A stretch of DNA of 64,000 bases from Puniceicoccales bacterium (GTDB taxonomy: Bacteria; Verrucomicrobiota; Verrucomicrobiia; Opitutales; JAIRLM01): contig JAITCU010000020.1 in assembly GCA_031282835.1 (NCBI GenBank), positions 15,805-79,804 on the forward strand, read 5' to 3'. The translations under genes were made by a program, and so were the position numbers. This document shows, one piece after another, positions 15,003 to 59,712 of the stretch; position 1 is the stretch's first letter, and every line of letters begins with the position of its first letter. The notes under the pieces are model-generated. The model saw nothing but the letters and a program-made list of their open reading frames with translations. It searched no databases and was not told the origin of the DNA.

Positions 15003-16715
15003 ATGATGCATATTCCCCAAGTGACGCGCCCGCTGGAATGGCAAACCATTTGGAAAAACCCGATCAAATTATTAGCACTTGTTGGCGTCGTAGTCACCTG
15101 GCCTATTTCCGCACCCATCTACGGACTGGTCCAGCTGCTGGCGGTTATGACTCAGTTGTCCGTCATTATTGGCTTTGCCAACGGCTATTGGGCTGCCATT
15201 TCCCTGGCTTTTCTGCGTAAGGCGATAGTTCCATCGCCTGGGGCGACCCCGCCACCGCCCGAGGTAACACCGGCCCTGCCCGTGGAAAAACCGCGGCTTT
15301 CGATCGAGAAGTTGCCAATATCCACGGAAAGTCCGCCTCTTGAACATTCGAGGACGAGCCCGTCTGAGAAGGTAGATTTTCAGGGATTATCTTCTCCTTC
15401 GGTATGGGATGACCCTATAACCGATGAATTTGTAGCCCGCCAAATAGAGATAGCTCGATCATGTGGCGATGACCTTAACCTGGAGGCTTTTTTGAGGCCA
15501 ATATTCCAGCGCAATTGTGGCCTTGAATTTTTTCATAGATGCGAACTGGCAGATCCGTTTCTAAGCGCAAGAGTAAGTGGATACATCAGTGGAAGGCAGA
15601 ATCTAAGATGGATGAGACGCGGCATGCAAATTTTAAGTACGCGATCACCTAACGCATTAATGATGTGCATACCGAAATTCGCTGAATGTACTAATCTGGC
15701 CAAGCAATGTGAGACTTTCCGTTACATCCTTAGGCATTATCCTAAACGTGTAAGCGAAATTTCCTCCGCGTTTGGGCAATATGTGGAATCTTCGAAAATG
15801 TGGATTAGCCTTGAGGATTTCAGGTGTTGCATCGATGCGGAGAAGTGCAAAGAATGCTTTTCATCTGGAAGCAATCCAGCGAGACAGTTGCTGGGACATC
15901 TACCGCGGTCGGCGGTTGCCAACGGTTGGAAGGCGACGGGGATTCCGCTTAATACGTTCATCTCGGAGCAACCTCCAGATTATGATACGGTTTTACACAT
16001 TCTTCAAGGTTTGCCAGTTAACGAGGCAGCGCGGGAACTTCAAAAACTTTCCCCATCTAATGCGGAACAGTTGATCCGTGATTCTTGCGGATTATGTCCG
16101 AAGCGGACGGCGCGAATTTTACTGCAAATTGATCCGTCACTTACTGAAACAATTCTCAGGGATTCAAATTTTTCCCTTGCACAACTGTTTGAGATGGCCA
16201 GCGAAATGAAAAAGCAAGATCACACAAAATGGGCAGAATTTTTTCCACAAGAGCCGAGTAAAATTCACAAAATGTACGCGAACCCTTTAACCCGCACGTT
16301 TTCATATGTGTGCATGCTCACCATGGCCGAAGATGAACGTTTGGCATTTTTTGAACAAGATCCGCATAGAATTGCCGATTTATTGGAACCCGTTGCAGAT
16401 TCTGGATCTCCGGAGCTTGCTAGAATTTTCTGGTTAATCTTCAAAAGCGGAATTATCATCAAGCATTCATTGCCTTTACGGCGCGTCAGTTTTTGGCACC
16501 GCCTTAAGCAAATGACTGCCAAACTTGCCGAAAGTAGATCCTTTTTTGCCTTTGTCGTTAAATGCGGGAATGCCTCGGACGCTGACCTCGCCCAGTTTTT
16601 CAATCGCTTCGAAAGCGAAGTGTTTGATGGAAGCCAACTTTTAAATCAGTTACCCCCCGAAAGGGTAAAAAATATCGAGCGTTTGATGGCTGCGGGGCGC
16701 CCAAATGCTCCGTGA
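15003..16715 (+). CDS. hypothetical membrane protein with an N-terminal bilobed hydrophobic domain (Inc-like)
   Basis: 570-aa ORF. Residues ~20-75 form two adjacent hydrophobic helices (LLALVGVVVTWPISAPIYGLVQLLAV / LSVIIGFANGYWAAISLAFL). A Pro-rich linker follows, and the rest has no motif I recognise. Confidence 0.7.
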   Translation: MMHIPQVTRPLEWQTIWKNPIKLLALVGVVVTWPISAPIYGLVQLLAVMTQLSVIIGFANGYWAAISLAFLRKAIVPSPGATPPPPEVTPALPVEKPRLSIEKLPISTESPPLEHSRTSPSEKVDFQGLSSPSVWDDPITDEFVARQIEIARSCGDDLNLEAFLRPIFQRNCGLEFFHRCELADPFLSARVSGYISGRQNLRWMRRGMQILSTRSPNALMMCIPKFAECTNLAKQCETFRYILRHYPKRVSEISSAFGQYVESSKMWISLEDFRCCIDAEKCKECFSSGSNPARQLLGHLPRSAVANGWKATGIPLNTFISEQPPDYDTVLHILQGLPVNEAARELQKLSPSNAEQLIRDSCGLCPKRTARILLQIDPSLTETILRDSNFSLAQLFEMASEMKKQDHTKWAEFFPQEPSKIHKMYANPLTRTFSYVCMLTMAEDERLAFFEQDPHRIADLLEPVADSGSPELARIFWLIFKSGIIIKHSLPLRRVSFWHRLKQMTAKLAESRSFFAFVVKCGNASDADLAQFFNRFESEVFDGSQLLNQLPPERVKNIERLMAAGRPNAP

Positions 16716-16790
16716 GCCATGCGGGGACGACGATTAAAACGGGACCCTTCGAAAATATTTGCTAGATTTTTACGTTCCAACGAAAAAGCG

Positions 16791-16855
16791 TTGACAACCA
16801 GCCACTTTCAAGCAGCATAATTCCCTAGAATTCGAATTCTAAAAAAAGGATTAAT
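16791..16855 (+). promoter_or_regulatory. cassette C1 promoter/operator
   Basis: TTGACA(16791-16796), 19 nt, CATAAT(16816-16821), TCCCT, AGAATTCGAATTCT (16827-16840, a perfect palindrome), AAAAAAAGGATTAAT, then ATG at 16856. Four other loci have the same layout. Confidence 0.55.
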
Positions 16856-16981
16856 ATGAAAAAAGATACCACTATCCCCGTCTCCGCGACAAGTATTCCC
16901 GATGGCGATTTAAAGCTGGCATGTTCCGAGCCCAGGCCTGATGAAGTGATTGACTGTAACAGTGATAATGTAATCCCATGA
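16856..16981 (+). CDS. 41-codon upstream ORF translationally coupled to alaS
   Basis: MKKDTTIPVSATSIPDGDLKLACSEPRPDEVIDCNSDNVIP. An SD-like AAGGA lies 6 nt upstream. Its TGA (16979-16981) overlaps the alaS ATG (16978-16980). Below the ORF-track size cutoff. Confidence 0.45.
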   Translation: MKKDTTIPVSATSIPDGDLKLACSEPRPDEVIDCNSDNVIP

Positions 16982-19695
16982 AAACCGCTGAAGAATTACG
17001 CCGGGAGTTTCTCGATTACTTTTCCACACACGAACACCGGATTGTTCCCTCCGAGTCGCTTTTGCCCGGTTCACCCAATTTGCTTTTTACAAATGCCGGG
17101 ATGAATCAATTCGTGCCCTATTTTCTTAACGAGCGCCCAAGCCCATTTGCGCGGGCGGCGGACTCTCAGAAATGCATCCGCGCCGGCGGGAAACACAACG
17201 ACTTGGACGACGTGGGCTACGACACCTACCACCACACGTTTTTTGAAATGCTCGGCAACTGGTCCTTTGGCGATTATTTCAAACATGAGGCCATCTCCAT
17301 GGCGTGGGATCTGCTGGTAAATCGGTGGAAATTTCCCAAGGAACGACTCCACGTAACCGTCTACAAGCCGAAAACCGGTGAACCCTCCGAGGAGGACCGG
17401 GAGGCGTACGGCATTTGGGAAAAAATATTTATCCGGGAGGGCTTGGAGCCCGGGCGGCACATCCACTTTGGAAGCGCGAGGGACAACTTTTGGATGATGG
17501 GCGAAACCGGTCCTTGCGGGCCCTGCACGGAAATTCACATGGACCTCACCCCCGATGGCAACGGGGAAAATTTGGTAAATTCCGGATCGCCCCGGTGCAT
17601 GGAGCTGTGGAATTTGGTATTTATCCAGTACAACGCATTGGGCGAGGGCAATTTCGCGCCGCTACCGGCTCGCTACGTGGACACGGGCATGGGACTGGAG
17701 CGCATTGCCGGGGTTATTGCTTCAACTGCAGGATTCCGCGATTTTTCCAAAAATCCCTCCAACTATGGCAGTGACCTATTTGAACCGCTTTTCGCCGCCG
17801 TGGAAGCGGCGGCGGGGCGGAAAATCACCTACAATGGCACCGTCCCGGCGGACCGGAAAAAGCTTTCTTCCCAGGAAATGGCCGATTGCTCCTTCCGCGT
17901 TGTTGCGGACCATGTGCGGGCCTTGACCTTTGCCATTGGCGACGGCATTTTGCCCGGTAATGAGGGTCGGGGATATGTGCTCCGCCGCATCCTCCGCCGG
18001 GCCATTTTATTTGGCCAACGCCTGGGCCTGGGGGGCAACTTTCTGGCCGATTTGTCCGCGGTCTGCATCCGGCAAATGGCCCATGCCTATCCGACGCTCG
18101 AAACCAATGGGGAAACCATCGGAAAGGTTCTCGTGCGCGAACAGGAAGCGTTCACACGCACCTTGGAGCGCGGGCTACAGTTGCTCCAAGCAGCTATCCG
18201 CGAGCATGATACCACCGTTCCCGGGGATGTGGTTTTCGAGCTTTACGATACCTACGGTTTCCCCGTCGACCTTGCCGAATTGGTCGCCGGGGAGTCGTCC
18301 CGGACTTTGGACCGGGATGGGTTTGAGAAGTGCATGGCGGCCCAACGGCAACGGGCGCGCGAGGCCCAACGGGCGGAAACAATCACCGTCAAAGATTCAG
18401 ACAATGCGGCCGCACAAACGGTCTTTGTGGGACATGCAACGACGGGCCCGGTGGAAACGTGCCTCATAAAAACGGTTTCGCAGGGTGGAAAATTTCGGGC
18501 GGTTTTTGCCGAAACGCCCTTTTATGCCGAAAAGGGCGGACAAGTCGGTGATAGCGGACACGCGTCCATCGATGGTCGAACTTACGCAATCACGGACACG
18601 CAAATTTCCTCGGATGGGACCATATTGCATGAAATGTCCGACGCCATCGGGGCCATCCCCTGTGGGAGTAGGGTTTTTTTAACCGTCGATGGGGACCGCC
18701 GGCAGCGCATTTGTTGCCATCACACGGCGACGCACGTTTTGCAGGCGGCACTTCGCCAAGTACTCGGTAACCATGTGAAACAGATGGGTTCGTCGGTCGG
18801 TGAGGATTCCCTCCGCTTTGATTTCAGCCACTTTGAAAAACTTTCCCGTGAACAGCTGGAACAAACGGAGGACCTGGCAAATGCCATCGTTCTCAAAAAT
18901 TTTGCCGTGCGCACGGCGGAAGTTCCATTTGCCCAACGGCCGGACCACTGCCTGGCCCATTTCGGGGAACGCTACGGGGATCGGGTGCGCGTGGTCGAGT
19001 TTGTTGGCACGCAAATGGCGGAACTGTGCGGAGGGACCCATGTACGGGCAACCGGTGAAATCGGTGTGATTAAAATTTTGAGCGAGCAGGGCATTGCCGC
19101 CGGGACGCGCCGCATCGAAGCCGTTGCCGGAGTGAATGCGCAAAAGCTTTTCGGAAAAATTTTCCGCGACCAATGCGAATGCGCTCAACGGCTCCACTGC
19201 CCAATGGATGACCTCGCCGATGCGCTTTCAAAATTGCAGAGCCAAAAACAACAACTGGAAAAACAGGTCAAAGCGATGGCTAAGACGCAGGCGCAACGGC
19301 AATTAAAGGAATTTCTTGAAAAAAGCGTTGAGGTAAACGGACAACGCTGGGTAACGGGATGCTTTGACGTACCTCTGGACAACGGCGCATTGCGGTCCTT
19401 TGCCAAGGAGGCATCGGTGCAATTACCGCAGGCGCATGCGCTATTGCTCGCTCGGGAGGACTCGGGCATCTCCTACGTTCTTTCCACGTCCCCAGAAAGC
19501 GGGGTTTCCGCACAGAAGCTCATCGAAACTTGGAACGCAATCGTAGGGGGCAGTGGTGGGGGAAACGACACCGTCGCGTGCGGCAAATGCCCTGCCATCA
19601 AGGATATCCAAACGGTGCTTCAAAAACTTTATGATGTTTCCTCCACCCGGAAATGGAACCTTGGAATAAGTACCCCAATACGCGCATCATTATAA
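16978..19695 (+). CDS. alaS: alanine--tRNA ligase
   Basis: 905 aa. HHTFFEMLGNWSFGDYFK, the editing-domain HTATHVL...CGGTHV pair, and a C-terminal GGSGGG segment. Confidence 0.95.
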   Translation: MKTAEELRREFLDYFSTHEHRIVPSESLLPGSPNLLFTNAGMNQFVPYFLNERPSPFARAADSQKCIRAGGKHNDLDDVGYDTYHHTFFEMLGNWSFGDYFKHEAISMAWDLLVNRWKFPKERLHVTVYKPKTGEPSEEDREAYGIWEKIFIREGLEPGRHIHFGSARDNFWMMGETGPCGPCTEIHMDLTPDGNGENLVNSGSPRCMELWNLVFIQYNALGEGNFAPLPARYVDTGMGLERIAGVIASTAGFRDFSKNPSNYGSDLFEPLFAAVEAAAGRKITYNGTVPADRKKLSSQEMADCSFRVVADHVRALTFAIGDGILPGNEGRGYVLRRILRRAILFGQRLGLGGNFLADLSAVCIRQMAHAYPTLETNGETIGKVLVREQEAFTRTLERGLQLLQAAIREHDTTVPGDVVFELYDTYGFPVDLAELVAGESSRTLDRDGFEKCMAAQRQRAREAQRAETITVKDSDNAAAQTVFVGHATTGPVETCLIKTVSQGGKFRAVFAETPFYAEKGGQVGDSGHASIDGRTYAITDTQISSDGTILHEMSDAIGAIPCGSRVFLTVDGDRRQRICCHHTATHVLQAALRQVLGNHVKQMGSSVGEDSLRFDFSHFEKLSREQLEQTEDLANAIVLKNFAVRTAEVPFAQRPDHCLAHFGERYGDRVRVVEFVGTQMAELCGGTHVRATGEIGVIKILSEQGIAAGTRRIEAVAGVNAQKLFGKIFRDQCECAQRLHCPMDDLADALSKLQSQKQQLEKQVKAMAKTQAQRQLKEFLEKSVEVNGQRWVTGCFDVPLDNGALRSFAKEASVQLPQAHALLLAREDSGISYVLSTSPESGVSAQKLIETWNAIVGGSGGGNDTVACGKCPAIKDIQTVLQKLYDVSSTRKWNLGISTPIRASL

Positions 19696-20446: not shown

Positions 20447-20670
20447 TTTTTTTGAACCCGGACGCCCCCTATTTCTTTTCCGCTGACCTTGTGGGCCATA
20501 TCGACCGCGGTGTTATTTCTAAGGTCCATGTCCGTACGGTCTCTTTCAGAGTTATACCAGCGATGGATAACGAATCCGTGCGATTGCCGTGACAAATTTT
20601 CACTCCGCCTGCATATTTCGTCTTGACTTTCAATCGAAAATTCCCATAAAAAAACGCAGTTCTTTGACAT
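20392..20670 (-). CDS. hypothetical 92-aa protein downstream of repeat copy 1
   Basis: MSKNCVFLWEFSIESQDEICRRSEN... has a protein-like composition. The homologous position in repeat copy 2 lacks the ATG and has an in-frame stop. Confidence 0.35.
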   Translation of the reverse strand: MSKNCVFLWEFSIESQDEICRRSENLSRQSHGFVIHRWYNSERDRTDMDLRNNTAVDMAHKVSGKEIGGVRVQKKCLHARLNLAPLGQWSIW

Positions 20671-21160
20671 TTTTCTAAGATTTGTGAAGCATTACAGACA
20701 TCGACCTGCCGTTTGGTCCTTTCGCCGAGCATGGTACTCGCACCTGAAAATGGTGCGACCGGCCGTGGGCGAGAACAAACTAATGGTGGGAAAGTTGCTG
20801 CGGTGGTATAGCAAGTGGCAGAAAAAATTTTATTCGTATACCGTAAGATCTGCGTATTCATTGCGTTGTGATATGGGAGCAGGTGTAAGAGTCGATTTTA
20901 AAGCATTCCGACTTCTGCAAAAGCTCCCCTGTCTCGACGCTCAAACGAGCATTCCTATGCAAGCATGCGATTCTTTGATAGACTTCTAACGCTTGTGAAA
21001 TGGTGCAGATTTCGACTTGTCTCTCGGTCCTTTCGCCGAGCATGGTACTCGCGTCTGAAAATGATGCGACCGGCCATGGGCGAGAACAAACCATTGATGA
21101 GAGGATTTTGCAATGGAAAGCAAGTAGCAGAAAAAATTTTATTCATATGCCGTAATGTCT
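20640..21160. repeat. tandem duplication, period 311 bp, with a ~150-bp highly conserved core
   Basis: 20697-20855 and 21008-21160 align by eye with few substitutions (GGTCCTTTCGCCGAGCATGGTACTCGC...GCGACCGGCC.TGGGCGAGAACAAAC...GCAGAAAAAATTTTATTC). Each core contains a 7-bp stem-loop, at 20738-20758 and 21049-21069. Confidence 0.75.
20862..20981 (-). pseudogene. decayed duplicate of the 92-aa ORF
   Basis: At the position homologous to ATG 20670 the sequence reads CTA (20981-20979). The frame gives LSKNRMLA and then TAG at 20957-20955. Confidence 0.3.
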
Positions 21161-21316
21161 GAGCACCCGCTGCGTCATAACGTCCGGGCTTGTGTCTCTT
21201 TTGGCTCCGTGTCCAATTAAAAATTTACCGCATGATCGTCGCGAAAGAGCCAACGCCGTTGCCGCCGAAGCGCTACATAGGCTGGGGTTCGGGTATTTTC
21301 CGAAAAAGCAAGATGC

Positions 21317-22432
21317 CTATTCTTCCTCTTCCAAGTACATGCCGAGGTCTTCGCGGGCCATGTCGACTTCGATGTTGCTCTCGCCAGCCTCCTGCAAATC
21401 CGCCACCCAGCGCAAAACCTCGGCCACCGCCTCAAGGAGCTGGGACGGAACATACTCCATCGCGTCCGCCGAGTCCATTAGCGCATGGGCCAGGGGGACG
21501 TTGCGCATGATGGGAATGCCTTCCGCGCGGGCAATGGCTATCATTTCCGCGGCGAGGATACCCTCGCCCATAGCCAACACGACGGGCAGTAGGGTAAGTT
21601 CCTCCTCGTAGAGTATGGCGACGGCCAGATGTGTTGGATTGGTAATCAGCGCCGAGGAACGCTTTGTGCGCTGGGCTGGACCCTCGTTCATCATTTCCTG
21701 GTGGATTTGCTTGCGTTTGCTTTTGATTTCCGGGGAGCCCTCCATTTCCTTATATTCGCGCTTAATTTCACTCTTGGACATCATCATCTTTTTGTTGAAG
21801 TCACGACGTTGGAAGAAGATATCCGCGACGGCGACCACCATATAGGCAAAGATGACCAGAGACGCGAATTTCTTCATCACCGGGCCAATAAACGCTATCA
21901 GACCCGACACCCCCGAGTAGGGCAGCAGGATCATCTCATCCAGCTGCGATTTGATAAGCCGGTAGATTAGGATACCCAGGAAGGTCACCTTTAAAACAGA
22001 TTTGAGAAATTCGAAGATATTTTTCTTCGAAAAGATCTGTTTAAATTTCTCTATGGGGTTGAGCTTTTTAATGTCAGGTTTAATGGGTTCGGTCGTGAAA
22101 ATGGCTCCCACCTGCATGAATCCAGCGGCAATGGCAAAAGCGGCCACAATCCCCAGTATGGGAAGGAGCAGGTCGACCAGTTCCGCAAAGCAGGCGGATA
22201 TAACCGCGCTCAGCCCCTGGCGGAACGGAGCACCGAAAAAGGGCACGGGGAGAACCAAAAATTCCTGAAGCTCGTCCACCGCCGTCCACCATTTCAGGCC
22301 GATGTAGGCAAATACGCCGATGAGCAAGACCGTGGACGTGAAATCCTTACTGTAGGCGACTTGTCCCTTTTTCTTTGCATCACGCAACCGCTTGGGTGTC
22401 GGCTGTTCTGTTTTTTCCTCGCCCTCTCCCAT
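21317..22432 (-). CDS. sctU: type III secretion export-apparatus switch protein SctU (YscU/FlhB family)
   Basis: 371 aa with four N-terminal TMs, the NPTH autocleavage motif (ALITNPTHLAVAI) and PIMRNVPLAHAL. Confidence 0.9.
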   Translation of the reverse strand: MGEGEEKTEQPTPKRLRDAKKKGQVAYSKDFTSTVLLIGVFAYIGLKWWTAVDELQEFLVLPVPFFGAPFRQGLSAVISACFAELVDLLLPILGIVAAFAIAAGFMQVGAIFTTEPIKPDIKKLNPIEKFKQIFSKKNIFEFLKSVLKVTFLGILIYRLIKSQLDEMILLPYSGVSGLIAFIGPVMKKFASLVIFAYMVVAVADIFFQRRDFNKKMMMSKSEIKREYKEMEGSPEIKSKRKQIHQEMMNEGPAQRTKRSSALITNPTHLAVAILYEEELTLLPVVLAMGEGILAAEMIAIARAEGIPIMRNVPLAHALMDSADAMEYVPSQLLEAVAEVLRWVADLQEAGESNIEVDMAREDLGMYLEEEE

Positions 22433-22438
22433 GGCAAC

Positions 22439-23227
22439 CTATCTCCAAAAAATCCTCACGAACTGGAGGGCACGGCTTTCTCCGAAGAAATGGGATTTAA
22501 AAAATCCCATGAGAAATGACAAATAGAGAATGATAAATAACGACGAGAGACCACTTTTAATGCCCATGGACAGGAAAAACACGTTAAGCTGGGGCGCAAA
22601 ACGATTGACCATACCCAAGCCGAATTCGGCAAGGAATAGGGCAAACAGAATCGGACCCACGAGAGCGAAAACGACATTGGCGTAATCGCTCGTCAATTGT
22701 ACGAAAAACGCCGCAACACCGCCGTCGAACATGGGAAATAGCGAAAACAGCGGCCACAGCCGATAGCTTTCGTAGAGGAGCTGCAGCAGAAAAAGAAATC
22801 CGCCGGTGATGAAAAAGAGCAGGAGGACGATTTGGACGAAAAAATCTGCCATCACCGTCGTTTGGCTCTCATTAAAGGCGCTGAACAGGGAAGCGGATGA
22901 GGCACCCCGCTGTACATCGATGAGATTCCCCACACCCTCCACGACGAAAAAAATAAAACTGGCCAAAAAACCGAGGACAAGCCCGATGAGCAGTTCCTTG
23001 GTGCAAAGCATGATGATCAGTCCCAGGCTGATGTCAGGGTTAATAAATTCCTTGTGGAGAACTGGATAAATAAAAAGCGTCAAGCCCAAAATCCATGCGT
23101 TGCGCCCCATGCCCATCACATTTTTTTTTCCGAAAAACGGAATGACCGAAAACATCGCTGCCGTGCGCACGATGCCCATGATCATCACAAAAAAGAAGCT
23201 GCGGAATATGAAGAGGAACGAAGGCAT
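22439..23227 (-). CDS. sctT: type III secretion export-apparatus protein SctT (YscT/FliR family)
   Basis: 262-aa polytopic membrane protein located between sctS and sctU, with FliR-like hydrophobic periodicity. Confidence 0.8.
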   Translation of the reverse strand: MPSFLFIFRSFFFVMIMGIVRTAAMFSVIPFFGKKNVMGMGRNAWILGLTLFIYPVLHKEFINPDISLGLIIMLCTKELLIGLVLGFLASFIFFVVEGVGNLIDVQRGASSASLFSAFNESQTTVMADFFVQIVLLLFFITGGFLFLLQLLYESYRLWPLFSLFPMFDGGVAAFFVQLTSDYANVVFALVGPILFALFLAEFGLGMVNRFAPQLNVFFLSMGIKSGLSSLFIILYLSFLMGFFKSHFFGESRALQFVRIFWR

Positions 23228-26650: not shown

Positions 26651-26747
26651 TAACAGAGGTCCTGCAAAAGTCGGAAACACTGTCTTAAGACCCGCATTTC
26701 ATGAGGGGCAAAATGGCCCAAAAGCGACTTCAGCAGGATCTCTAATG

Positions 26748-26750
<3 letters not shown>
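26651..26750 (+). repeat. ~97-bp palindromic element, copy A
   Basis: TAACAGAGGTCCTGCAAAAGTCGG...CGACTTCAGCAGGATCTCTAATGTTA: imperfect ~20-bp terminal inverted repeats around the internal hairpin CCCGCATTTCATGAGGGG. The right arm contains the stop codon of the Pro-rich gene on the other strand. Confidence 0.7.
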
Positions 26751-28382
<1,632 letters not shown>

Positions 28383-45759: not shown

Positions 45760-45872
45760 AGTGGCAGACTCTCAAACGATTCTCGGGCCTTGCCAAGGAA
45801 AGATATGCCGGCACCATCGAAACGGGGTTCCCCGGGAATATTTACAAAATCTTCGCATTTCCTCCGAAAGCG

Positions 45873-45937
45873 TTGACAAGCGCCCATTCTCAAGCAAGAT
45901 AGTCCAAGAATCTGGATTCTAAAAAAGAAAGTTCAAT
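45873..45937 (+). promoter_or_regulatory. cassette C4 promoter/operator
   Basis: TTGACA(45873-45878), 19 nt, GATAGT, CCA, AGAATCTGGATTCT (45907-45920), AAAAAAGAAAGTTCAAT, then ATG at 45938. Confidence 0.5.
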
Positions 45938-46111
45938 ATGAAAAATGTCATCATTATCGCCCCGCCCATGGCAGATATTTTTAATAGAGGTCCTGCGAAA
46001 GTCAGAAACACTGCCTTGAAACCCGCATTTCATGCGGGGCAAAATGGCTCAAAAGCGACTTCTGCAGGACCTCTATTATCCTCTTACCAACGTAGCCGGC
46101 TAAAACATTAA
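45938..46111 (+). pseudogene. cassette small ORF interrupted by the palindromic element (C4)
   Basis: MKNVIIIAPPMADIFN shares the ADIF(Y/N) motif with C2/C3. From codon 16-17 the frame runs into the 97-bp element and reads through it to a stop at 46109-46111. Confidence 0.4.
45982..46078 (+). repeat. ~97-bp palindromic element, copy B
   Basis: TAATAGAGGTCCTGCGAAAGTC...GACTTCTGCAGGACCTCTATTA, with the internal hairpin CCCGCATTTCATGCGGGG. Confidence 0.75.
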
Positions 46112-46674: not shown

Positions 46675-49600
46675 CTAACCAACCCAACGTGGGATCCAGA
46701 GGGCAACGGCCGCGATGCCCGATGCGGCCCCCGGAAAGAAAAGAAGTGCGTATCCCCAGATGCCAATGGCAAGGATACCGATTATGTTGGTAAATACAAG
46801 GGCCAAAGCGGCGGCGATGAGCAGCAAACCGGAAATAATAGTAAGCGCGATGGCCCAACGTGGGTGCAGTATCTTCCGAGTTGCCGTGACTTGCATTATT
46901 TTCGATTTTGAAGGTCGATCGGGCACGACGGCAATGTCCTCTCTTACCGGGATGTTACCGTCTCCGTCGGGCCAGGTCTTGCCACAGCCCATTCCGAGGG
47001 GCCGGGAGTGGGAAATTGTTGTCCTAACATCCTCCCTGTCCTGGGTCGGGGTGCGGAGGAGGAGATAGTTTTGCCGCAGATTCAACAGCTTTGGATCGTG
47101 ATGTCCCTCACCGTCAGCGGCCATCACCTGCGCCACAAGGTCGCTGTTTTCCGTGAGGAGGTAGGGTATGTTTGCATTAAAAAGCGCCAATTCGCACAAC
47201 TTCCGCTGGCGGAACTCTTTAAGTTCATCCGGGATCTGCCCGTGGAGGCATGTGCCGGTTCCGGCGAGATAGATGCAGCAATTTTGCAGGTTTCCCTCCT
47301 TGGCGCGCAATGTATCGTACTCTTGCTTGGAAACGGCGATTGCACGTGGATTGGTCCTTTCGCTCTCCCATGTGATGACTAAATAACTGCAGTGCTTCTG
47401 GGTACGGTCGAAGACCGTATGTTCGGTTTCGCAGGATTGGGCGAAATTGCGGCTCAAATACAAGTCGGACGGAAAACAAGCGTCAAATTGGGAATAAATT
47501 TCGCGATCCTTCGGGTCCATGGGCCCGCCGTGCTCTCTTATTTGTTCGGGAACCGAACGACTTTTATCGGCGAAAAAGGTGTGCATATCCGTTGGACCAT
47601 CAATGATGAGCAGGTCCTCTTCTTTGGGATCCAGTCGATCGCCATAGCCGACTCGGGTTAGAAATTCTTCCAGCTGCAAATTAACGGAAATATTGCAGTT
47701 AACTTCCACCTCGGTCTGTTCTTGCACTTCGACCTGCACGGAGGCGTCGACATCCCCGGCATAGTTATCCGCGCCAACGGTGACGCATATGCCTTCCGTC
47801 CCTTGGAGGATTCTTACCTTTGTTTCATTGAAAGTTTTGGCGGCTTGTTCATCGAAGCGATCCAACAGTTGCGACTGCTCTAATTTTGTTTTTAATAGTT
47901 GTACTTTCCGATTGTAGTAGGCCTCAACGGCTTCATTGAGCGACATCGTGCGTTGGAGTGCAAAAAACATGGCTTCCGGCGAGAAATCATCCACTTTAGT
48001 CAATAGTTCTCCGACGGCGTTGGAAAAAATTGAAAGCCGCCAAGGGTCACTGGCCAAAGCGATCGCCGTCCGGCGGATGAAATCATCGACGAGTGTGTCC
48101 ACCTTGTCGTAACTGGCCCGGATGTATTGCTGGATAATGCTGCGCGACTGATTTCGCTGCAGGGTCGCATATATGTCCGCGGCCGTCGGTTCCCCGCCGT
48201 CCGCGAGGCGAAGGAATTGCGGCCGCGATTTTTCCAACGCCATGTAGTCAATGGTTTGCGAGCTGAGAAAGGCCCGCGGGCGGATATTCGCTTGGGCATT
48301 GCGATCGGTCGTTAGCCAGCTGGGATCGAGGGTTTGGAGTGCATGGCAATCGATGGGAAGCGGGAGGTCGGTACCCGTGCAACGTTGTTCGTCGTAGTAT
48401 GCAAAAAGAGCGTTGAAATCGTTGACGACGGCCGCCAGGGCCTCCCGGTTCATCGGCCGGATTGCGATGGGCTCCGTTCGATCCGCGCAAAGGACGAAGA
48501 ATGTCTGCCTATCGGGATCGTAATAAAGCACATGACGCACATCCGGAATGTCTTTCTGCGCGAAAGCCAAAATATCCCGCGCCACATCCCGTGGATGCTG
48601 GCCGTTGAGCAATGCTCCGGCGTCAATGAGTGCCCGCAGGCCTGTCACACCACCGACATGGGCCTCCAGCAGCATTTTCGCCGTTGGCCGCGCTTCACCG
48701 TTGTCCACGAATTGAATGGGCTGGGGCCGAGCGCCCATGAGTTCACAGTTCCGGGCAATGACCTGGCCGTCGCTGCCGGCCTGCAATTGGATGTCGACCT
48801 TGGCAAAGTTATATACGCCCTTGTTGGCCATGGTTCCGGAAAATCCGACGGTGCGGCTGAATAACCGCGGAAACTGTGCCGATTTACTCTCAACGGATTG
48901 GGTGGAAAAATGGATGCTTTTTTGGGCAAAAATTCGCGCAACTTTTTGCCGGCCGGAAATTTGAGTGTCTTGCCGAAGGAATGCGCACAGGCATTCGCAT
49001 ATCTTTTTCCGCGTGGATGGATCTGCCGTGGTTACGAGCGTTTCCACGGTCACCGGGCGATCCTCATAGTTGCAGTCCTTGAAGATTTCGTCAAATTCGT
49101 CGAAGGCCTTCCGCTGGCTTTCCTCGTCCGCCACGAGTCGCGATAACATGTCCACGTAGCTCTCAAGCATCCGCAGGGGAACGCCATCGATACTAATTCC
49201 AGCAAAGAAACAGCAGGCCGTCTGGTAGCAATTTTTGAATTCACTGCCCAGGTTGGGCTCGTTGGGCCCTTTGAAGGGGATGCAGGCGCCGTCGAGACCG
49301 AAGCCGAAGTTTTGGTTATATTTTTGCGTGAAAAGATGGGGCAACAGCGTGCCCAGCAGGCCCCGGGCTATGAGTATGCGATCGTAGGAGCGGAGGGATG
49401 CGGCGGTGCCCTGTTCCTTTTGCTGCTGTAAAAAGGCCAAAAATGCGTTTGCTTCCTGGCGCGTGGCGGTGTCCGTCTCCGGGACGTTGTCAAACTGGCC
49501 AAGGACGTATTTGTGGAAGGAGTTGCGCATTTCGTCGGGAATTTGAATGGCAAATTTTTCTTCAAGAACGTTTTGGGACAGCCGCCGCAGCACTTCCTGA

Positions 49601-52600
49601 ACTCGGTCCGGAGCCATGAGATGCTGCTGATTTTGCCGGAGTTCGGGACAAATCTCTGCAACGGAAATAATCACGTCACTGATAAAATCCAGATGCGCCT
49701 GGGGCATTCCCGGCAGCTGTCCGGCTGCCGGAGGTAGGGAAACATTCAGGTATTCCAGCGGGTTGAGGATGCGGTCAATTTCGTCGCCGATGAATATGGC
49801 ATCTTCGCCGAGAAGTTTGAAGATGTCTAGCAAAGTTTGGAGGCAAAGTTCATCCGTTTTGTTCCGCTGGGGCTTCCGCGCCAGGAGCTTGAATTGGGCT
49901 TCGAGTATTTCGATGGTGGTCGGGTCGATGACGAACACCCGGTCCCGCTCCTCCAGCGCCATTTGCATCTCCCGCAAAAGCCACTCCAGATTCCACGGTT
50001 CCCGTGTGTCCTGGAGGGTGAAGTTCGCGGACACAACCCGTATGTTCAGCCGCGAAAAGCTGGGTGCCAGTTCTGCGCGGAGGGCGTCAAACTGGGATTG
50101 ATTGTGGGCACAAACAAATGGGAGCTTCCGCTGCTGGGCTACCCGGGCGGCGTAGGTGGGGATGACCACACTCGTCTTTCCGGCGCCCATCTGCATTTGT
50201 ATGACCGTATCCGTTGGATTTTCCGCCCCCAAACCATCACACAATTTTTTAAGGATGTCGATTTGCCCGCGGCGGGCGTGTTTGCCGCTAACATATTCGT
50301 TGAGAAGGGCGTAGGGGTAACTTTCCGGGTTGTAGGTGTCGTCCCATTCTTCTAATTGGTCGAATAGGCGACTTTGGCAGGCGGACCGGCGGGCACCGTC
50401 ATTACCACCGGCACGTTGGAGGTCCTGAATGACTTGCATCAAATTGGCCATGCGGCGGAACATAATTTTGTGCCGCATGTACTGATGGGAACATTCCATG
50501 ATTTGAGGGACGTCGTCCGGCGTGATGCTGGGATTATATTTTTTGAGGAAATGAAAAAATCGCGCCGTATCGGGTGGCACGCGCGTTGCGAATTGGCCGT
50601 AGGCGGCGATGACCGCTTTGAGCTTTATGGGCGCGGAACAAACGACAACGTCCTGTGCCATTAGCATGGGACTCGGTTTGTTGACCAAGGCGAGGAGTTC
50701 CTCATGCAATTTCCGCGTCTCGGCGCGCATTTTTTGGCGGTGGACCTCGATGGATTGAGATGCGGCGTCACAATCGAAGGGCACCTTCTTAAGTTCCTCG
50801 TTGCGAGCTCGCTTGAGAGCCAATTGCTCGGCGCCGGTCTGGATTTCGCCGTTGAGTTCTTCGAGGGATTTTTGAAACGCATCGCCGATGGTATCCCGGT
50901 CGTCTGGGCTTAATTTTTTCAGATAATCCGCTGGAGTAAAATGGAGTGGACTTGCGGGCGCGGGCGAAGGGTTTTGGTGGAAGGCCACGAGCGCTCTTCG
51001 TAAACCTCCAAGGGCGGTTCCGACTCGGAAAAGTTCATCCTGCATGGGCAGGACTTGCAAATCGTGTGCCGCGGACGAGCCACTTTCCATGGCTTGAACT
51101 TTCTCTTCCTTTGCCAGCAACGGGTCGTAGTGCCGTAACCGTTCCGCCGGTTGTGCAAACTCTGCGGCAACTGAACCCGGGCGCAAAAAGTGGTCCAATG
51201 ACAGTAAACGCTTGGCAATGATCGGCTCCTGCGGATTGAGAATGCCGATGGACGCAAGGTGTTCCAACAGGCGCCGCTCCCGGCGGGGATCCATGCGCAA
51301 TTGTAGGGGCATGGAAGGTAAATTTTTGAGGTATGTTTCGAGGAGCGTCCCCAGGGGTTCGTTTTCAAATTTTAAAGCTCCCTCCCTGGGTTTGAGCACG
51401 GCGATGTCATTGCAATTGAGGCCGTACATTTCCGCCCATTTTTCCAATAGGAGCATGTGAACGGCGGCAACCTTCCCGGAATACCCCTTCATGCGTCGGC
51501 CTTCTAAAAGACAGTCTATCATAAGCTGGTGATGGACCGGCGAGAGGGCGGCTCCGGCGTGAAGTCGCTTAAAATATTCCGCAGCTTGGTCGTAGTCGCC
51601 CTGGAGCAGAAAAATGACGCCCAGTTGCAGGTTCCCGTCGTTGGATAATCCATCCAGGCGGGTTGCACCCGGTTCTTCCCGGCGTTGGACGAAGTGCGCC
51701 TCCACGGGTGTGGCTGTCCCGATGAAAGGCTTGTCCATGGTTGGCGTATTGCAGAAGGCGGAGGACACGGTTGCCCCAATTGGCCCAGCTCGCCCAAGCA
51801 TCTGGGCCACGCCGTCGGGCGCCGCATCATCCAATGCATCATCTCGCTGTGATTGTAAGCCGACGGCGGGCATTATAACTTTGTAGGAACCGGGCTGTTT
51901 CGTATTATGCAAAAAAATCGCATTTTTGTAGCTCCCGAGTGGGTTTGATTTTTTATTGCCGCCCGGGCCGGCGTACATCTCCGGCACGTCTACCAGCTGG
52001 TAATCCGTGCCGCGCTGCATCCATTTGTCGTCGCGCAACTCAAAGCATAAATCATAACGAGGGGCCCAGACCTTTTGCAGCTTGTTATGCGCATCCACAA
52101 AAAAAGCGCAATTTTTCTCATTTTCGAAGCGGGAGAGCCATGTGACACTTTGGGGGTTAGGATGGGGCGCCAAGAAAAGGCCCTTGTATGGTTCAAACGT
52201 GCACTCCAGTTTCCAGTCGGGACCGCTTCCCTGGCTTTGGAAGTAGATGATTTCTGGATGTTTCCGATCGCGCACCTGCAGTTGTCCACCGGGCCCCATC
52301 CATGCGGTGTATGTTTCGCTGCATAGCCAATTCGGAAGTTGAAGAGCCCTTTGTAAAATTCTCGCCGGTGCGTACTGCCACCACTGGTCCGATTTACCGA
52401 AATTGGTGCTAATCACCTGTCCATGCGTACCATAGGAAAGTCGGACGTTCCCGTAGGCTGGATCGGTGAAGGATGTCCATTCGCCGCTGTGGATAAATTC
52501 GCGGTTTTCAGGGCCAAAAAGCCGCTGATAGTCCCGCGCACTGGTGAGTGTGTCCGCCGTTCGAATTTCGTGCCCGCCCCAGAAAACGTGGAAATTGTTA

Positions 52601-55600
52601 AAATCTACCCAGGAATTTTTTGGCACCTCTCCCCCCATGCGTTGGCAGAAACTTGCCAATATTGATCGTTCGATGCGTGCCCGTTTGTTTGGAGACTTTT
52701 GCAGGAGACCACCCAGCTCTGGAACGGTACCACAAATGGTTTTGTAGCAGGAGTGCGGTATGCCTTGTAATTTGAGCGCGCGGGAGGCGAAAACGTCTCC
52801 GTAGAACCCGACGAGGAGTCCATCATCGATTTCTTCAATTTTGGAGCCATCGGTGAAGAACTTCATCCGTTCCACGGCGAGCTCGACCCTGGCTAGGTGT
52901 AAAATCGCCTGTTCGTCCGAGCCCAGGGTGCGGCCAAACTTTCTTTCTATTTCGTCGAGTTGCTGTAACCTCAATTCGACGGATGGGAAAATGGGTTCTT
53001 CGGTGGAACTAAATGGGCAGCCATGTATCTCCATGTGGATTTCTTGACACTGATGGATGAGGTGTGCCATGTAACAAAGGGCGTGTACGTCTGGCCGCTG
53101 GAAGGGTTTCATTTCCAGGTGGAGGCGCAGGACGGAGTTATACGTATCTTGCAATACTCTGAATAATTTTTCCGGATTTCGTTCGATCTCATCGGCAAGG
53201 GAACAAACCGGTCGGCTGGCAAACGGCCTTTCTCTGAAGAGTTGGCCATCCATTACGTAATGGGATCTGTTTTCCGCGGCGTTGGGAATGGATTCCGGAC
53301 GCTCGGCCTGTTGAAAGTTGGCAAGCAGCATGTTGTCCAACAGCGCAAGGAGCATGGTCTTTCCGTGCTGTTCCCTGTCATCGACGCCGAAACGGCTGAA
53401 TAGATCCAGGTGTGAATTGATGATGTCGAAGAGGGAATACACCTGCGTCCCGGGGACGGAGAGGGCCTTCCCAATTTCATAGAATAGGGGATGCTCGGCA
53501 AACGCCGTGTTGCCACCGTTTAGGAAACGTTTGCTGTGATATTCCAGCTTGGCCGGGGCGCCACGGCCATCGCACACCAGCTCAGGGACATGGGTCACAT
53601 TCCATGGGTCCAGGGCGGACACGTGATTTTCATCGTTGAAGCAGCGCCAATTGAACTTATCGCGTTCGTCCCAGTAATCCCACATGAGAGGAAGTTGATC
53701 CGATTGGACGCAGGCGCTCTCAAGTTGTACGCTTGGAAGCTGGTGCGGGTAAAATTCGTTGAATAAAAGTTTCGGACCGGGGATACCACCCAAAATCTTG
53801 CGCACGGACTCCCAATGGGCGCATTGGTCCTCAAATACGTATTTCGTGTCGTCGACGGATCTTGCCCAAACGTACGCCCATTTTCGTTCTTCGAAAAACT
53901 TGTCCATTTGGCCGTCAGGAGCTCCCGGGACTATCTTGCCAGCCACATTTTGAAAACCGGGACACGCCGCTGAAAAGCGTTGCAATTGACTCATGCCCTC
54001 GTCAGGTCCATGGCCGCCGTAGTTACAATACGAACGCATATAGGAATCACTGCGATCGATGGTTCCACAACCTAACGAAAAATCCACGGTCTGTGACTTG
54101 TTGTGCCTGTAAAAGTCTAACACCTTTTGCTGTCGTTCGCGATCTGCGGCGGACATGGATTGGCATGCGTCATTGGCGGTAAATAATTCAAATACATGGC
54201 AATCAAGTGAATATGCGGACAGACTGTCATCTGTCGCGCCACCGAGGCCTCCGGGCATTTTTAATAGCCAGAATGTGACCAGCCTGATATTGGTCACTTC
54301 CGCCGCGAATGGGGCCGCAATGTGCCAGGGGAGTTCGGCGCTGCTTTGGTCCAAAATTTGTTCCTCGAGGCCGGAACTGAAGAAATGTCGGTAGCCATCG
54401 GTTACGGACGACAAACTACCCCCCATTTGCTCGGTTAGCTTATCTAAGAATCTAGCAAAGATAGCAACGCACCGCTTATGGTCGTCAGAGTTCCCCTGCG
54501 CCCAGAATGGATCATTGGGCAATGGCAAAAGGGACATCAATTCCTTGGCGTAAAAGATACCCGCGTAGTCGTAGGGTTTACTTGTGGTGTCAAATGAGAA
54601 ATTCGCCATCGCATTAAGAACTTTGGCGTAATCTCTCTTTAGCAATTCGATTTCCGGGCGGACGATCTCAATGTGGGGGACCACATCGGCTTCGGTGGCC
54701 TTGTGAAGCACGCTTTGAATTTTAGCCGACATGTCACCACCCGGCGGCGGGGCGATGGTTTCAGGGAATGCATTTCGCGTCTCCGCCTGGTGCATGGCTT
54801 GGTAGTATTCGGGACTTTTTAGTGTGGTGTCGCATCGGTTCAAAAGGGCTTCCATCCCGTCAACGTATGGCGCAGCATCCGCGGAAAGTTCCTTAAGCCT
54901 ATGGCCATATTTTCTTAGAAAAAGCTCCGTGGTACCGACGCTTTCCCGGAGCATCCACAATTGATCCATTTTCCGCGCCGGGTCTCCAGCGGGATCGGTA
55001 AGTACATTGCTACAATGGTCATGAAGTGCCCCAAGCGCGCCCAGGCGGTTGAAGAGTTCGATGAGCCGCGTGTATTCACCGCTGCGTTTGACGAGCGCTT
55101 TCAATTCCGAAGGTGTTCCGTGTGGGTGTTTGCGCAAGAGATGCTGATAGATCGTCATGCGGAAGAGTGCCGCCAACGAAGCCCATGGGTCTTTATCGGA
55201 AACCTTGGAAAATAAATCCCCACGCAATGCTGCATGGCCATCCAGGAGAACCTCGTGGCCAATCTGGGTACTGGGATCCTCACCCCCCCAAAGTTTTTCG
55301 AAATTGCCTTGCTGGGCTGCAAATTCAATGAATTTGGGTAGAATGCTTTTGAGTGCATCCGCATTCAGGTGGAAGGACCGGCCCAGTCGGCTTTTTTCTA
55401 CGAAGGACGCATGCCTCTGTTTGTCGAATTCACCGCGCGCCCGGCTGGAACTAACATCGATCTCATGAAAATAAAATGTCCCGTCATCCAGCTTCTCAAC
55501 CACCACATAGCAGCAACTGGTTTGGCCATGAGCCTCGGGATAAGTGAGAGGCATGCAAAATCGTTGGCCTGGGTTTAGCGTACGGATTTTCTCAGAGATT

Positions 55601-58927: not shown

Positions 58928-59620
58928 ATGCAAACAACACCGCAGCAGGCCCCATGGGAGAAGGGGGAATTCGTTCTCATCGCTATCGATGGCGGGGCGG
59001 GATCGGGAAAGACTTCGACGGCCCGTGTCATCGCCGAGCGGAACAATTTTGCGTTTGTTTCCACGGGAGAGCACTACCGCATCCTCACCCGTTACCTGGC
59101 GGAGGAAAATATTTCGCCCGGAAACGCCGCGGCCCTCCGGGGGGCACTGGGCCGGCTGCGACCCACCACGCAATTCATCGGCAACCAGGCACATATGTGC
59201 CTGGACGGGACTGTTGTGCCTGCTGAGGAGCTCCACAACGGCGTAATCAATACCATCGTCGCTGACTATGCCCAGAACCCCACTTTGCGGGAATTTCTCC
59301 ATGACTATCAGCGGCAGCTACCCCAGACGGCCCAGGCAGTCGGCTATGCCGGACTTGTCATCGAGGGTCGAGACATGACCAGCGCCGTTTTTCCCGAGGC
59401 CGATCTGTGTGTTTTCCTCGACGCCGATCCCCGGACACGACAACTTCGCCGAAAAATGGAGGGCATAGCCGATGACATCCATGCCCGGGATACCAAGGAT
59501 AGTCCACGATTACAACGAAGAGACGGCATGTTGTACGTGGATTCCACGGAACTTTCCCTAGACGAAGTGGTCTCCATAATTCAAAAAGAAATACAAAAAC
59601 TAACCGTCGAACATCATTAG
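58928..59620 (+). CDS. cmk: cytidylate kinase
   Basis: IAIDGGAGSGKTSTARVIA...VSTGEHYR. Start set at ATG 58928, preceded by GGAGGAAAGA. The longer ORF-track start (58781, ATGA overlap with glmS) would add a 49-aa hydrophobic extension. Confidence 0.85.
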   Translation: MQTTPQQAPWEKGEFVLIAIDGGAGSGKTSTARVIAERNNFAFVSTGEHYRILTRYLAEENISPGNAAALRGALGRLRPTTQFIGNQAHMCLDGTVVPAEELHNGVINTIVADYAQNPTLREFLHDYQRQLPQTAQAVGYAGLVIEGRDMTSAVFPEADLCVFLDADPRTRQLRRKMEGIADDIHARDTKDSPRLQRRDGMLYVDSTELSLDEVVSIIQKEIQKLTVEHH

Positions 59621-59712
59621 AAGTCCTGCAAAAATCAGAAACACTGCCTTGAAGCTCGCATTTTATGCGGGGTAAAACGGCCAAAAAGCGACTTCTGCAG
59701 GACCTCTAATAG
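59617..59712 (+). repeat. ~97-bp palindromic element, copy C
   Basis: TTAGAAGTCCTGCAAAAATCAG...GCGACTTCTGCAGGACCTCTAATAG. The left arm contains the cmk stop codon TAG. Confidence 0.7.

Follow-up and report, generated by a model that had tools for sequence, protein, structure and literature searches.

Do a promoter-like cassette and a 41-codon upstream open reading frame (uORF), whose stop codon overlaps the start codon of alaS, constitute a dedicated leader for that gene, or has the arrangement another origin? The question is raised by a 64,000-nt stretch of DNA from a Puniceicoccales bacterium (contig JAITCU010000020.1, positions 15,805 to 79,804, forward strand; the whole stretch is hereafter the window), in which the alanyl-tRNA synthetase (AlaRS) encoded by alaS is 100% identical to that of a Puniceicoccales (Verrucomicrobiota) metagenome-assembled genome (MAG). 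An initial annotation, for which the letters of the window were read without database searches, took AlaRS synthesis to be coupled to uORF translation, and a palindrome in the cassette to be the target of a regulator shared with other genes. The cassette and uORF together are a copy of a lineage-specific dispersed repeat of ~0.5 kb. It is likely that the uORF is a decayed part of that copy, with capture of the repeat's promoter the most likely relationship to alaS and termination-reinitiation coupling incidental.

The site upstream of alaS

The layout that had been described upstream of alaS (cassette, palindrome, Shine Dalgarno (SD) sequence, 41-codon open reading frame (ORF) and ATGA) is present in full and in place. 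In the following, C1 is the copy of the repeat before alaS, C2 to C5 are the other copies in the window, L001 is the alaS locus of a close relative and L060 a locus with a copy before rseP.

16722-16790, + strand: upstream conserved block of C1 (..TAAAACGGGACCCTTCGAAAATATTTGC..); the nhmmer match to a profile of the other copies begins at 16722, and the block is conserved in 5 of 5 window copies
16791-16796, + strand: −35-like hexamer TTGACA, from sequence reading; invariant in C1-C5, L001 and L060
16813-16821, + strand: −10 region CAGCATAAT, with two possible registers; spacing equal in every copy
16826-16841, + strand: 16-nt perfect palindrome TAGAATTCGAATTCTA; predicted 5′ end of the transcript, with a 5-6 bp stem and a UCGA loop
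16846-16850, + strand: SD-like AAGGA, 5 nt before the uORF ATG (16856)
16856-16981, + strand: 41-codon uORF MKKDTTIPVSATSIPDGDLKLACSEPRPDEVIDCNSDNVIP, whose TGA overlaps the alaS ATG
16963-16971, + strand: TGATAATGT, a −10-like box inside the uORF (extended TGn plus TAATGT, or GATAAT at 16964-16969), 6-8 nt upstream of the alaS ATG
16978-16981, + strand: ATGA stop/start overlap (uORF TGA, alaS ATG)
16978-19695, + strand: alaS (AlaRS, 905 aa), its start backed by the MKT.. N-termini of close homologues

In register a the −10 box is CATAAT (16816-16821) with a spacer of 19 nt, and in register b it is CAGCAT (16813-16818) with a spacer of 16 nt; with either, the predicted transcript start is at the palindrome or a few nucleotides before it. 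The palindrome had been given as AGAATTCGAATTCT (16827-16840), which is indeed perfect, though the perfect symmetry actually extends over 16 nt. It is separated from AAGGA by a run of A residues. The 25 nt before the alaS ATG contain no SD-like tetramer.

A dispersed repeat

That a repeated promoter-like cassette precedes the uORF is borne out by alignment, which gives five copies in the window; nhmmer E-values range from 1e-11 to 1e-150.

C1, before alaS, + strand: internal deletion; alaS downstream
C2, 25081-25558, − strand: full length, with a 64-codon ORF (25413-25219); faces the 3′ end of convergent serS
C3, 32871-33339, − strand: full length, with a 61-codon ORF (33193-33008); faces the 3′ end of a convergent mpl-like gene
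C4, 45812-45989, + strand: 5′ part only, cut by a 94-nt insertion (45982-46075) resembling a miniature inverted-repeat transposable element (MITE)
C5, 56161-56452, − strand: internal deletion, with a 14-codon ORF; directly followed at its 3′ end by the ATG (56172) of a gene for a 3165-aa protein

A full copy begins with the upstream block, followed in order by TTGACA and the −10 box, the palindrome, the SD and ATGAAAA, and continues with a small ORF of ~60 codons and then a 3′ module, itself made up of a mini-ORF (ATG..AATTAA), a hairpin, ACAACAAC.. and the conserved ATTATGGC. The palindrome by itself is unremarkable, as it has a single match in the window and 23 of 100 shuffles give at least one; nor is the looser class GAATTCGARTTC enriched (13 matches, 15 expected). 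The whole cassette, unlike the palindrome alone, is far beyond chance: the alaS copy is found at E = 2.4e-21 with a profile built from the other copies.

The repeat is not confined to the window. A profile of the C2 and C3 peptides matched 28 small ORFs among 5.8 billion proteins, all of them from this one MAG, with locus tags from LBB26_00095 to LBB26_04560 on many contigs. An exhaustive profile search of 1.84 billion representatives gave 38 clusters, which include at least three more from this MAG and several from JGI (Joint Genome Institute) contigs of other organisms, so that the family in this MAG comprises at least 31 called small ORFs; no longer ‘parent’ protein of consistent architecture is present among the 38 clusters. 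Three further copies, on Logan contigs, are upstream of co-oriented genes: rseP, a Na+/H+ antiporter gene and an ABC (ATP-binding cassette) transporter operon. [Two of these three contigs break within the repeat, as assemblies do at repeats.] Two pattern scans of DNA added nothing: the 53 matches of the 3′-module pattern ATGRRAAYNAATTAACAAARAA in genome_contigs are all in unrelated AT-rich genomes and are put down to chance, and the two matches of AGAATYNNRATTCTAAAAAAN{9,11}ATGAAAA in metagenome_contigs are both in ordinary Bacteroidota-like sequence. Nothing relevant was found in the literature on this lineage.

A MITE of the Correia, ERIC or RPE type was considered for the large repeat and dropped, since consistent terminal inverted repeats were not found in the three full copies; no target-site duplication of the repeat was recognised. 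The 94-nt element that interrupts C4 is a different matter. It is present in the window at 26651-26744, 45982-46075 and 59615-59708, and at 301-392 of a further locus, L062, and it is bounded by ~20-nt terminal inverted repeats (AGAGGTCCTGCRAAAGTC..), with a CCCGCAT..ATGCGGGG hairpin in its interior. Of these four copies, two are inserted into copies of the large repeat, in the small ORF of C4 and in the 3′ module in L062.

The 3′ ends of the repeat in C2, C3, L060, L062 and L063 share a conserved start-like motif (ATTATGGC.. or ATTGTG..). In C5 the start-like motif of the repeat 3′ end is the annotated ATG (56172) of the gene for the 3165-aa protein, and thus the N-terminus of that protein may be repeat-derived or mis-called.

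Loss of the ancestral leader and origin of the 41-codon frame

How the repeat came to adjoin alaS can be followed by comparing the alaS locus of the window with those of four relatives.

L001 (AlaRS P0002), AlaRS 85% identical: full-length element at the same site and with the same 3′ junction (..ACAACAGTAATA|ATGCAATGCC-ATG)
L061 (AlaRS P0003), AlaRS 84% identical: no element upstream of alaS
L002 (AlaRS P0004), AlaRS 82% identical: no element upstream of alaS
L004 (AlaRS P0007), AlaRS 79% identical: no element upstream of alaS

One clade of the AlaRS tree unites P0001 (the window) with P0002 and P0003, and P0004, P0006, P0005 and P0007 fall outside it. The repeat adjoins alaS only in the window species and one sister species, with its 3′ junction 10-12 nt before the ATG in both; at the alaS loci of L061, L002 and L004 nhmmer detects no element. 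These element-free loci share a leader, ..TAAAAAC-TTGCCTCGCC..GGAGAC.CCTGAT.T..YCCC-ATG, and keep ..YCCC-ATG-AAA-AC at the start of alaS, while ..CCC/GCC-ATG-AAA-AC is kept at all five. To judge from this comparison, the repeat replaced an ancestral alaS leader that the three relatives retain.

The copy in L001 has a 1-nt deletion, which gives a 78-codon ORF that is in another frame in its second half and that stops in the TAA of the mini-ORF ~60 nt before alaS, with no stop/start overlap. By comparison with it, the window copy lacks ~180 nt, from after ..CAGGCCTG to ..CTGATYGAC. The uORF is accordingly a composite. Its codons 1 to ~28 (16856-16941) have their homologue in the 5′ part of the repeat's small ORF, 16942-16967 are 3′ module and 16968-16977 are a residue (~10 nt) of the ancestral alaS leader; over its last 33 nt it shares 76% identity with the 3′ end of the copy in L001. 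The alignments thus show that the structured core of the repeat was lost in an internal deletion of ~180 nt, which also created a 41-codon frame ending in ATGA.

Of the five loci, the overlap is found in this genome only. Among 15 billion proteins the uORF peptide clusters with no other, and even with the N-terminus of its positional orthologue in L001 its identity is ~45% (hand alignment). The initial annotation had named absence of the uORF from close relatives, with the alaS start otherwise unchanged, as what would tell against coupling; it is absent from three of the four, and the alaS start is unchanged.

Two observations concern the relationship of C1 to other copies. The promoter part of C1 (16785-16819, compared with 45867-45901) is as close or closer to same-genome paralogues than to L001 (3630-3700), and the small-ORF part of C1 shares derived features with L001 (MKK.. 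and DGDLK). Gene conversion of the C1 promoter from paralogues may have occurred, but the segment identities compared for it, 63% and 71-72%, differ too little to show it, and the C4 start coordinate used in that comparison was wrong.

The neighbourhood also differs among the five loci. A 570-aa ORF (15003-16715, + strand), without a Pfam family above threshold, is present between dnaA and alaS, and only the window and L001 carry it. Just collapsed N- and C-terminal remnants of it are retained in L061, and in L004 dnaA is followed by 52 nt and then alaS.

Protein or RNA?

The nature of the intact repeat bears on what its remnant at alaS could do. The small ORF shows no protein-level constraint. 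Among C2, C3 and L060 the ratio of nonsynonymous to synonymous substitution rates (dN/dS) falls in the range 0.4-1.07, and the differences are spread over the three codon positions as 45:34:38, without an excess at third positions. Identity of the encoded proteins (~55-66%) is below that of the DNA (~78%). Stop positions vary between copies, and the copies in other organisms read conserved DNA in a different frame (..YENFPRFYNGPARC.. as against ..LREFPAFLGRASPLP..). The 28 peptides have no Pfam family, and an AlphaFold2 model of the small-ORF product has a predicted local distance difference test (pLDDT) score of 57.8 and a predicted template modelling (pTM) score of 0.18.

It is here that a true multigene family of small proteins, for example of secreted or type III substrates, of which the alaS uORF would be a pseudogene remnant, has to be considered. 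That an open frame of 54-100 codons survives in at least 31 copies, behind a conserved SD and ATGAAAA, is as such a family would have it, as are the Ser/Thr/Ile-rich N-termini and the presence of FlhB/YscU- and FliR/YscT-family export genes in the window and of a YscD-like gene in a relative. The dN/dS values, the distribution of differences over codon positions, the lower identity of protein than of DNA, the variable stops, the change of frame in other organisms, the lack of a Pfam family and the low-confidence model are all at odds with it, and so is base-pair covariation within the ‘ORF’. We consider a small-protein family improbable.

The covariation is as follows. RNAalifold applied to six copies gave eight helices inside the ‘ORF’ with 91% of cells paired, though the structure is derived from the same few related sequences in which pairing is then counted. 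The helices have nine double-change pairs, where the shuffle mean is 4.2, none of 500 shuffles reaches nine and slid controls give at most five; here too the structure comes from the same sequences. One hairpin, CCCAU..AUGGG in some copies and CUCGU..ACGAG in others, appears in the 28 peptides as balanced covariation of P..W and S..R (10 + 9 against 3 + 1). This pair ranks 5th of 1037 column pairs, and is the sole top pair with two common states, by a shuffle-normalised score, which was used as raw mutual information is dominated by high-entropy columns.

The description that suits the repeat best is accordingly that of a promoter-equipped element conserved as nucleic acid, be it a structured RNA family, a dual-function RNA or a selfish repeat. 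More specifically, and quite tentatively, it can be proposed that it is an undescribed family of promoter-equipped structured RNAs (or of RNAs with a small ORF), ~0.35-0.5 kb long and with at least 30-40 copies in a small, host-associated lineage of Puniceicoccales that has type III-type export genes, and that essential genes such as alaS and rseP have domesticated truncated copies to serve them as expression cassettes (promoter, 5′ hairpin and SD).

The palindrome: hairpin or operator

The initial annotation noted that the class of palindrome is not specific to alaS, and this is so: it is present in eight repeat copies at unrelated loci, which makes autoregulation by AlaRS of the E. coli type unlikely. 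The annotation went on to suggest a shared regulator. Its constant position, with the −10 box on one side and the SD on the other in all copies, is compatible with an operator, but its variation among the copies is more readily accounted for by pairing in RNA. Across the eight copies 39 of 40 cells of the 5-bp core are paired and four pairs have double changes, with flips of A:U to U:A, G:C to A:U and U:A to C:G. The covariation score exceeds those of all 500 shuffles and all slid controls, and all four asymmetries are G·U on the sense strand. Even in orthologous copies the half-sites differ, at four of eight positions (TAGAATTC in the window, GAAAGCTC in L001), and pairing is retained: the window has UAGAAU-UCGA-AUUCUA and L001 has GAAAGC-UCGA-GUUUUC (GAAAGCTCGAGTTTTC). 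One regulator with at least 30 sites would not tolerate such drift of its half-sites and a hairpin would. In addition, C2 and C3 have no downstream gene to regulate.

Two points temper this reading. In C4 and C5 a symmetric change of T:A to C:G is beside the non-symmetric centre, at positions that would be in the loop of the RNA, which fits a palindrome in DNA. The G·U strand bias, for its part, comes down to about three independent events. On balance the palindrome is most likely a 5′-terminal RNA stem-loop of the kind that stabilises mRNA, to go by its pattern of substitution, and a shared regulator is the less likely explanation.

Expression of alaS

Several features suggest that the predicted promoter and the start of the repeat have been kept functional. 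TTGACA and its spacing are identical in all seven copies that cover that part (C1-C5, L001 and L060), and TTGACA, the SD and ATGAAAA are unchanged among copies that are otherwise only ~60-80% identical. Every copy has an SD, as AAGGA or AGGAG, while the other genes of the window are at background level. It is probable that alaS is transcribed at least partly from the promoter of the repeat, because the ancestral leader is gone and, going upstream from alaS, the first conserved promoter-like signal is that of the repeat, with no intervening terminator. An alaS mRNA made in this way would begin with a stabilising 5′ hairpin. The uORF is probably translated, as it has one of the few good SDs in an SD-poor genome, and by analogy with other overlaps of this type ribosomes terminating at AUGA may reinitiate on alaS.

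Whether such reinitiation matters to alaS is a separate issue. The initial annotation had reasoned from the missing SD to coupling. The uORF does have a good SD and does end in ATGA on the alaS start, but the conclusion does not follow. An SD-like motif (GGAG, GAGG or AGGA at −18 to −8) precedes 3 of 36 long ORFs in the window, at the 9.3% background, so absence of an SD before alaS is the norm in this genome; furthermore the alaS orthologues that have no uORF keep the same start and likewise are without a well-placed SD. ATGA overlaps usually couple translation, strictly so for 13 of the 14 pairs examined experimentally (Huber et al. 2019, PMC6728339), and this, with the constant position of the palindrome, is in favour of the uORF being a dedicated translational leader of alaS and the palindrome an operator. 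A uORF that is absent from three of four close relatives and without stop/start overlap in the fourth, and whose peptide is a singleton so dissimilar to its positional orthologue, is not what would be expected of such a leader, which, taken together with the drift of the half-sites, makes this combination highly improbable. Coupling, if it occurs, we infer to be an incidental by-product and not a conserved regulatory device, with no tie to alanine or AlaRS.

The doubt expressed about classic attenuation was well placed. Ala accounts for only two of the 41 codons of the uORF, no terminator-like site was found between 16856 and 16978, and the leader is weakly folded, the predicted transcript 16827-17040 being less structured than 199 of 200 shuffles (z = +2.05). 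Rfam searches of the window at gathering threshold returned tRNAs only; permissive searches returned scattered matches, with E > 5 and all far below the gathering score of each family, and no match to the T-box covariance model was found.

A different possibility is that alaS is independent of the cassette, being transcribed from a proximal promoter within the uORF (TGATAATGT or GATAAT) as a leaderless or near-leaderless mRNA for which neither SD nor coupling would be needed, the uORF being a bystander. The sequence TGAT.. followed by ..YCCC-ATG is conserved in four of the five orthologous loci, the element-free ones included, and GATAAT in the window and AATAAT in L001 each match TATAAT at five of six positions, 8 nt before the ATG. 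The sparing use of SD motifs in the genome fits as well, and in L060 rseP is preceded by TTGACG-N19-TATACA-CCC-ATG (646-683). What the proximal box at alaS is without is a −35-like hexamer at 16-19 nt: repeat sequence has taken the place of the ancestral TTGCCT, and TTGACT (16950-16955) is too close, at 8-10 nt. The corresponding hexamers in element-free orthologues are poor (TTTGAT, TGTGGT and TGTAAC), and the enrichment of −10-like hexamers before starts, given below, comes from uncertain start calls and few genes. Independence of the cassette is the main rival to promoter capture, though the less likely of the two. [The promoter before rseP in L060 is of interest for another feature too. 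Leaderless-looking, it has the same 19-nt spacing as the promoter of the repeat and is ~135 nt downstream of a repeat copy.]

A number of observations weigh against capture of the repeat promoter and the history proposed for it. The promoter is a motif inference, with an unusual spacer (19 nt, or 16 nt with a weak −10), and a standard promoter scan in which 16-18-nt spacers were allowed finds nothing at the cassette; the case for it is its conservation across copies. No terminator was found between 16715 and 16790, and read-through from the upstream 570-aa gene is possible. The ends of the repeat fade and are not sharp. The AlaRS tree does not set the window and L001 apart from L061 as a pair of their own, and one insertion followed by loss is possible. 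The −10-like box 6-8 nt before the alaS ATG would, if used, make the cassette irrelevant to alaS, and it is not isolated, as TANNNT hexamers ending 3-9 nt before starts number 8 among 31 genes, where ~1.7-2.5 would be expected. [With the background level of SD motifs, this hints that leaderless or very-short-leader mRNAs are common in the organism.] Promoter capture nevertheless remains the favoured explanation for the locus.

Other features of the window

FlhB/YscU- and FliR/YscT-family export genes are at 21317-23227 (− strand), and the YscD-like gene of the relative is in L002. The 3165-aa protein, which is encoded at 46675-56172 (− strand), has a DUF3638 domain. Taken with locus tags suggestive of a small genome, these genes point to a host-associated lifestyle.

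Two sets of tandem repeats are also present. A GGY-rich array at 27625-28057, with periods of 9, 12, 15 and 18 nt, is in a 544-aa ORF (26748-28382, − strand), the product of which would thus have a repetitive segment of low complexity. Downstream of alaS, among small unannotated ORFs, is a tandem duplication whose period is ~310 nt (20620-21175; 20620-20791 with 20931-21102 and 20810-20866 with 21119-21175, 76-81% identical).

Significance

For alaS the outcome is deflationary. What looked like a designed leader is what is left of a decayed repeat, and a gene without an SD is nothing unusual in this genome, a caution to anyone who would infer regulation from one genome. Of more interest is the repeat, as a concrete case of probable promoter capture by essential genes of a verrucomicrobium that resembles a symbiont; it may also represent a new structured RNA, present in many copies and equipped with a promoter. 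Its presence or absence across five related genomes is a natural experiment on the wholesale replacement of the expression signals of an essential gene.

Comparison with known systems

In E. coli, AlaRS was reportedly found by Putney and Schimmel, in 1981, to bind a palindrome flanking its own transcription start and so to autoregulate alaS, with alanine enhancing the repression. The present locus is similar in having a palindrome at the predicted start of an alaS transcript, but differs in that the palindrome is part of a repeat at many loci other than alaS, is absent from alaS in three relatives and has changed in sequence even in L001. With the leader of pheST and with T-box control there is the resemblance of a short ORF or leader upstream of an aminoacyl-tRNA synthetase gene, but here a run of cognate codons, a terminator/antiterminator and an Rfam match to the T-box are all lacking. 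Judged by the sequence features that define them, none of the three (AlaRS autoregulation as in E. coli, attenuation, T-box control) is likely to operate at alaS.

Stem-loops at the 5′ terminus, that of the ompA 5′ untranslated region for instance, reportedly stabilise bacterial mRNAs (Emory, Bouvet and Belasco, 1992). The cassette likewise has a short hairpin at its predicted 5′ end, followed by an A-rich single-stranded stretch and an SD, and its pairing is conserved, though here the transcript start is a predicted one and the stem is short (5-6 bp) and AU-rich.

Termination-reinitiation coupling at ATGA overlaps (Huber et al. 2019, PMC6728339; reviewed in PMC12548453) involves pairs to which the uORF and alaS are alike in being co-directional, with a 4-nt overlap and with an SD for the upstream but not the downstream ORF. 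They are unlike them in that the upstream partner is a 41-codon remnant of a repeat and not a functionally linked gene, that the overlap is in one genome, and that coupling is here a prediction.

The closest known kind is promoter reuse by way of promoter-bearing intergenic repeats or ‘putative mobile promoters’ (Nijveen, Matus-Garcia & van Passel 2012, PMC3575422), the familiar promoter-bearing repeats being Correia elements, ERIC and REPIN. Those are 100-150 nt, whereas the present unit is ~0.5 kb, is without terminal inverted repeats or a recognised target duplication, contains an SD, a start codon, a ~60-codon ORF and conserved helices, and is restricted to one narrow Puniceicoccales lineage. 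In common with mobile promoters, similar promoter-containing copies are upstream of unrelated genes (alaS, rseP, transporter genes and the giant gene), a copy is present or absent at orthologous sites (present in the window and L001; absent from L061, L002 and L004), and a housekeeping gene appears to have captured the promoter.

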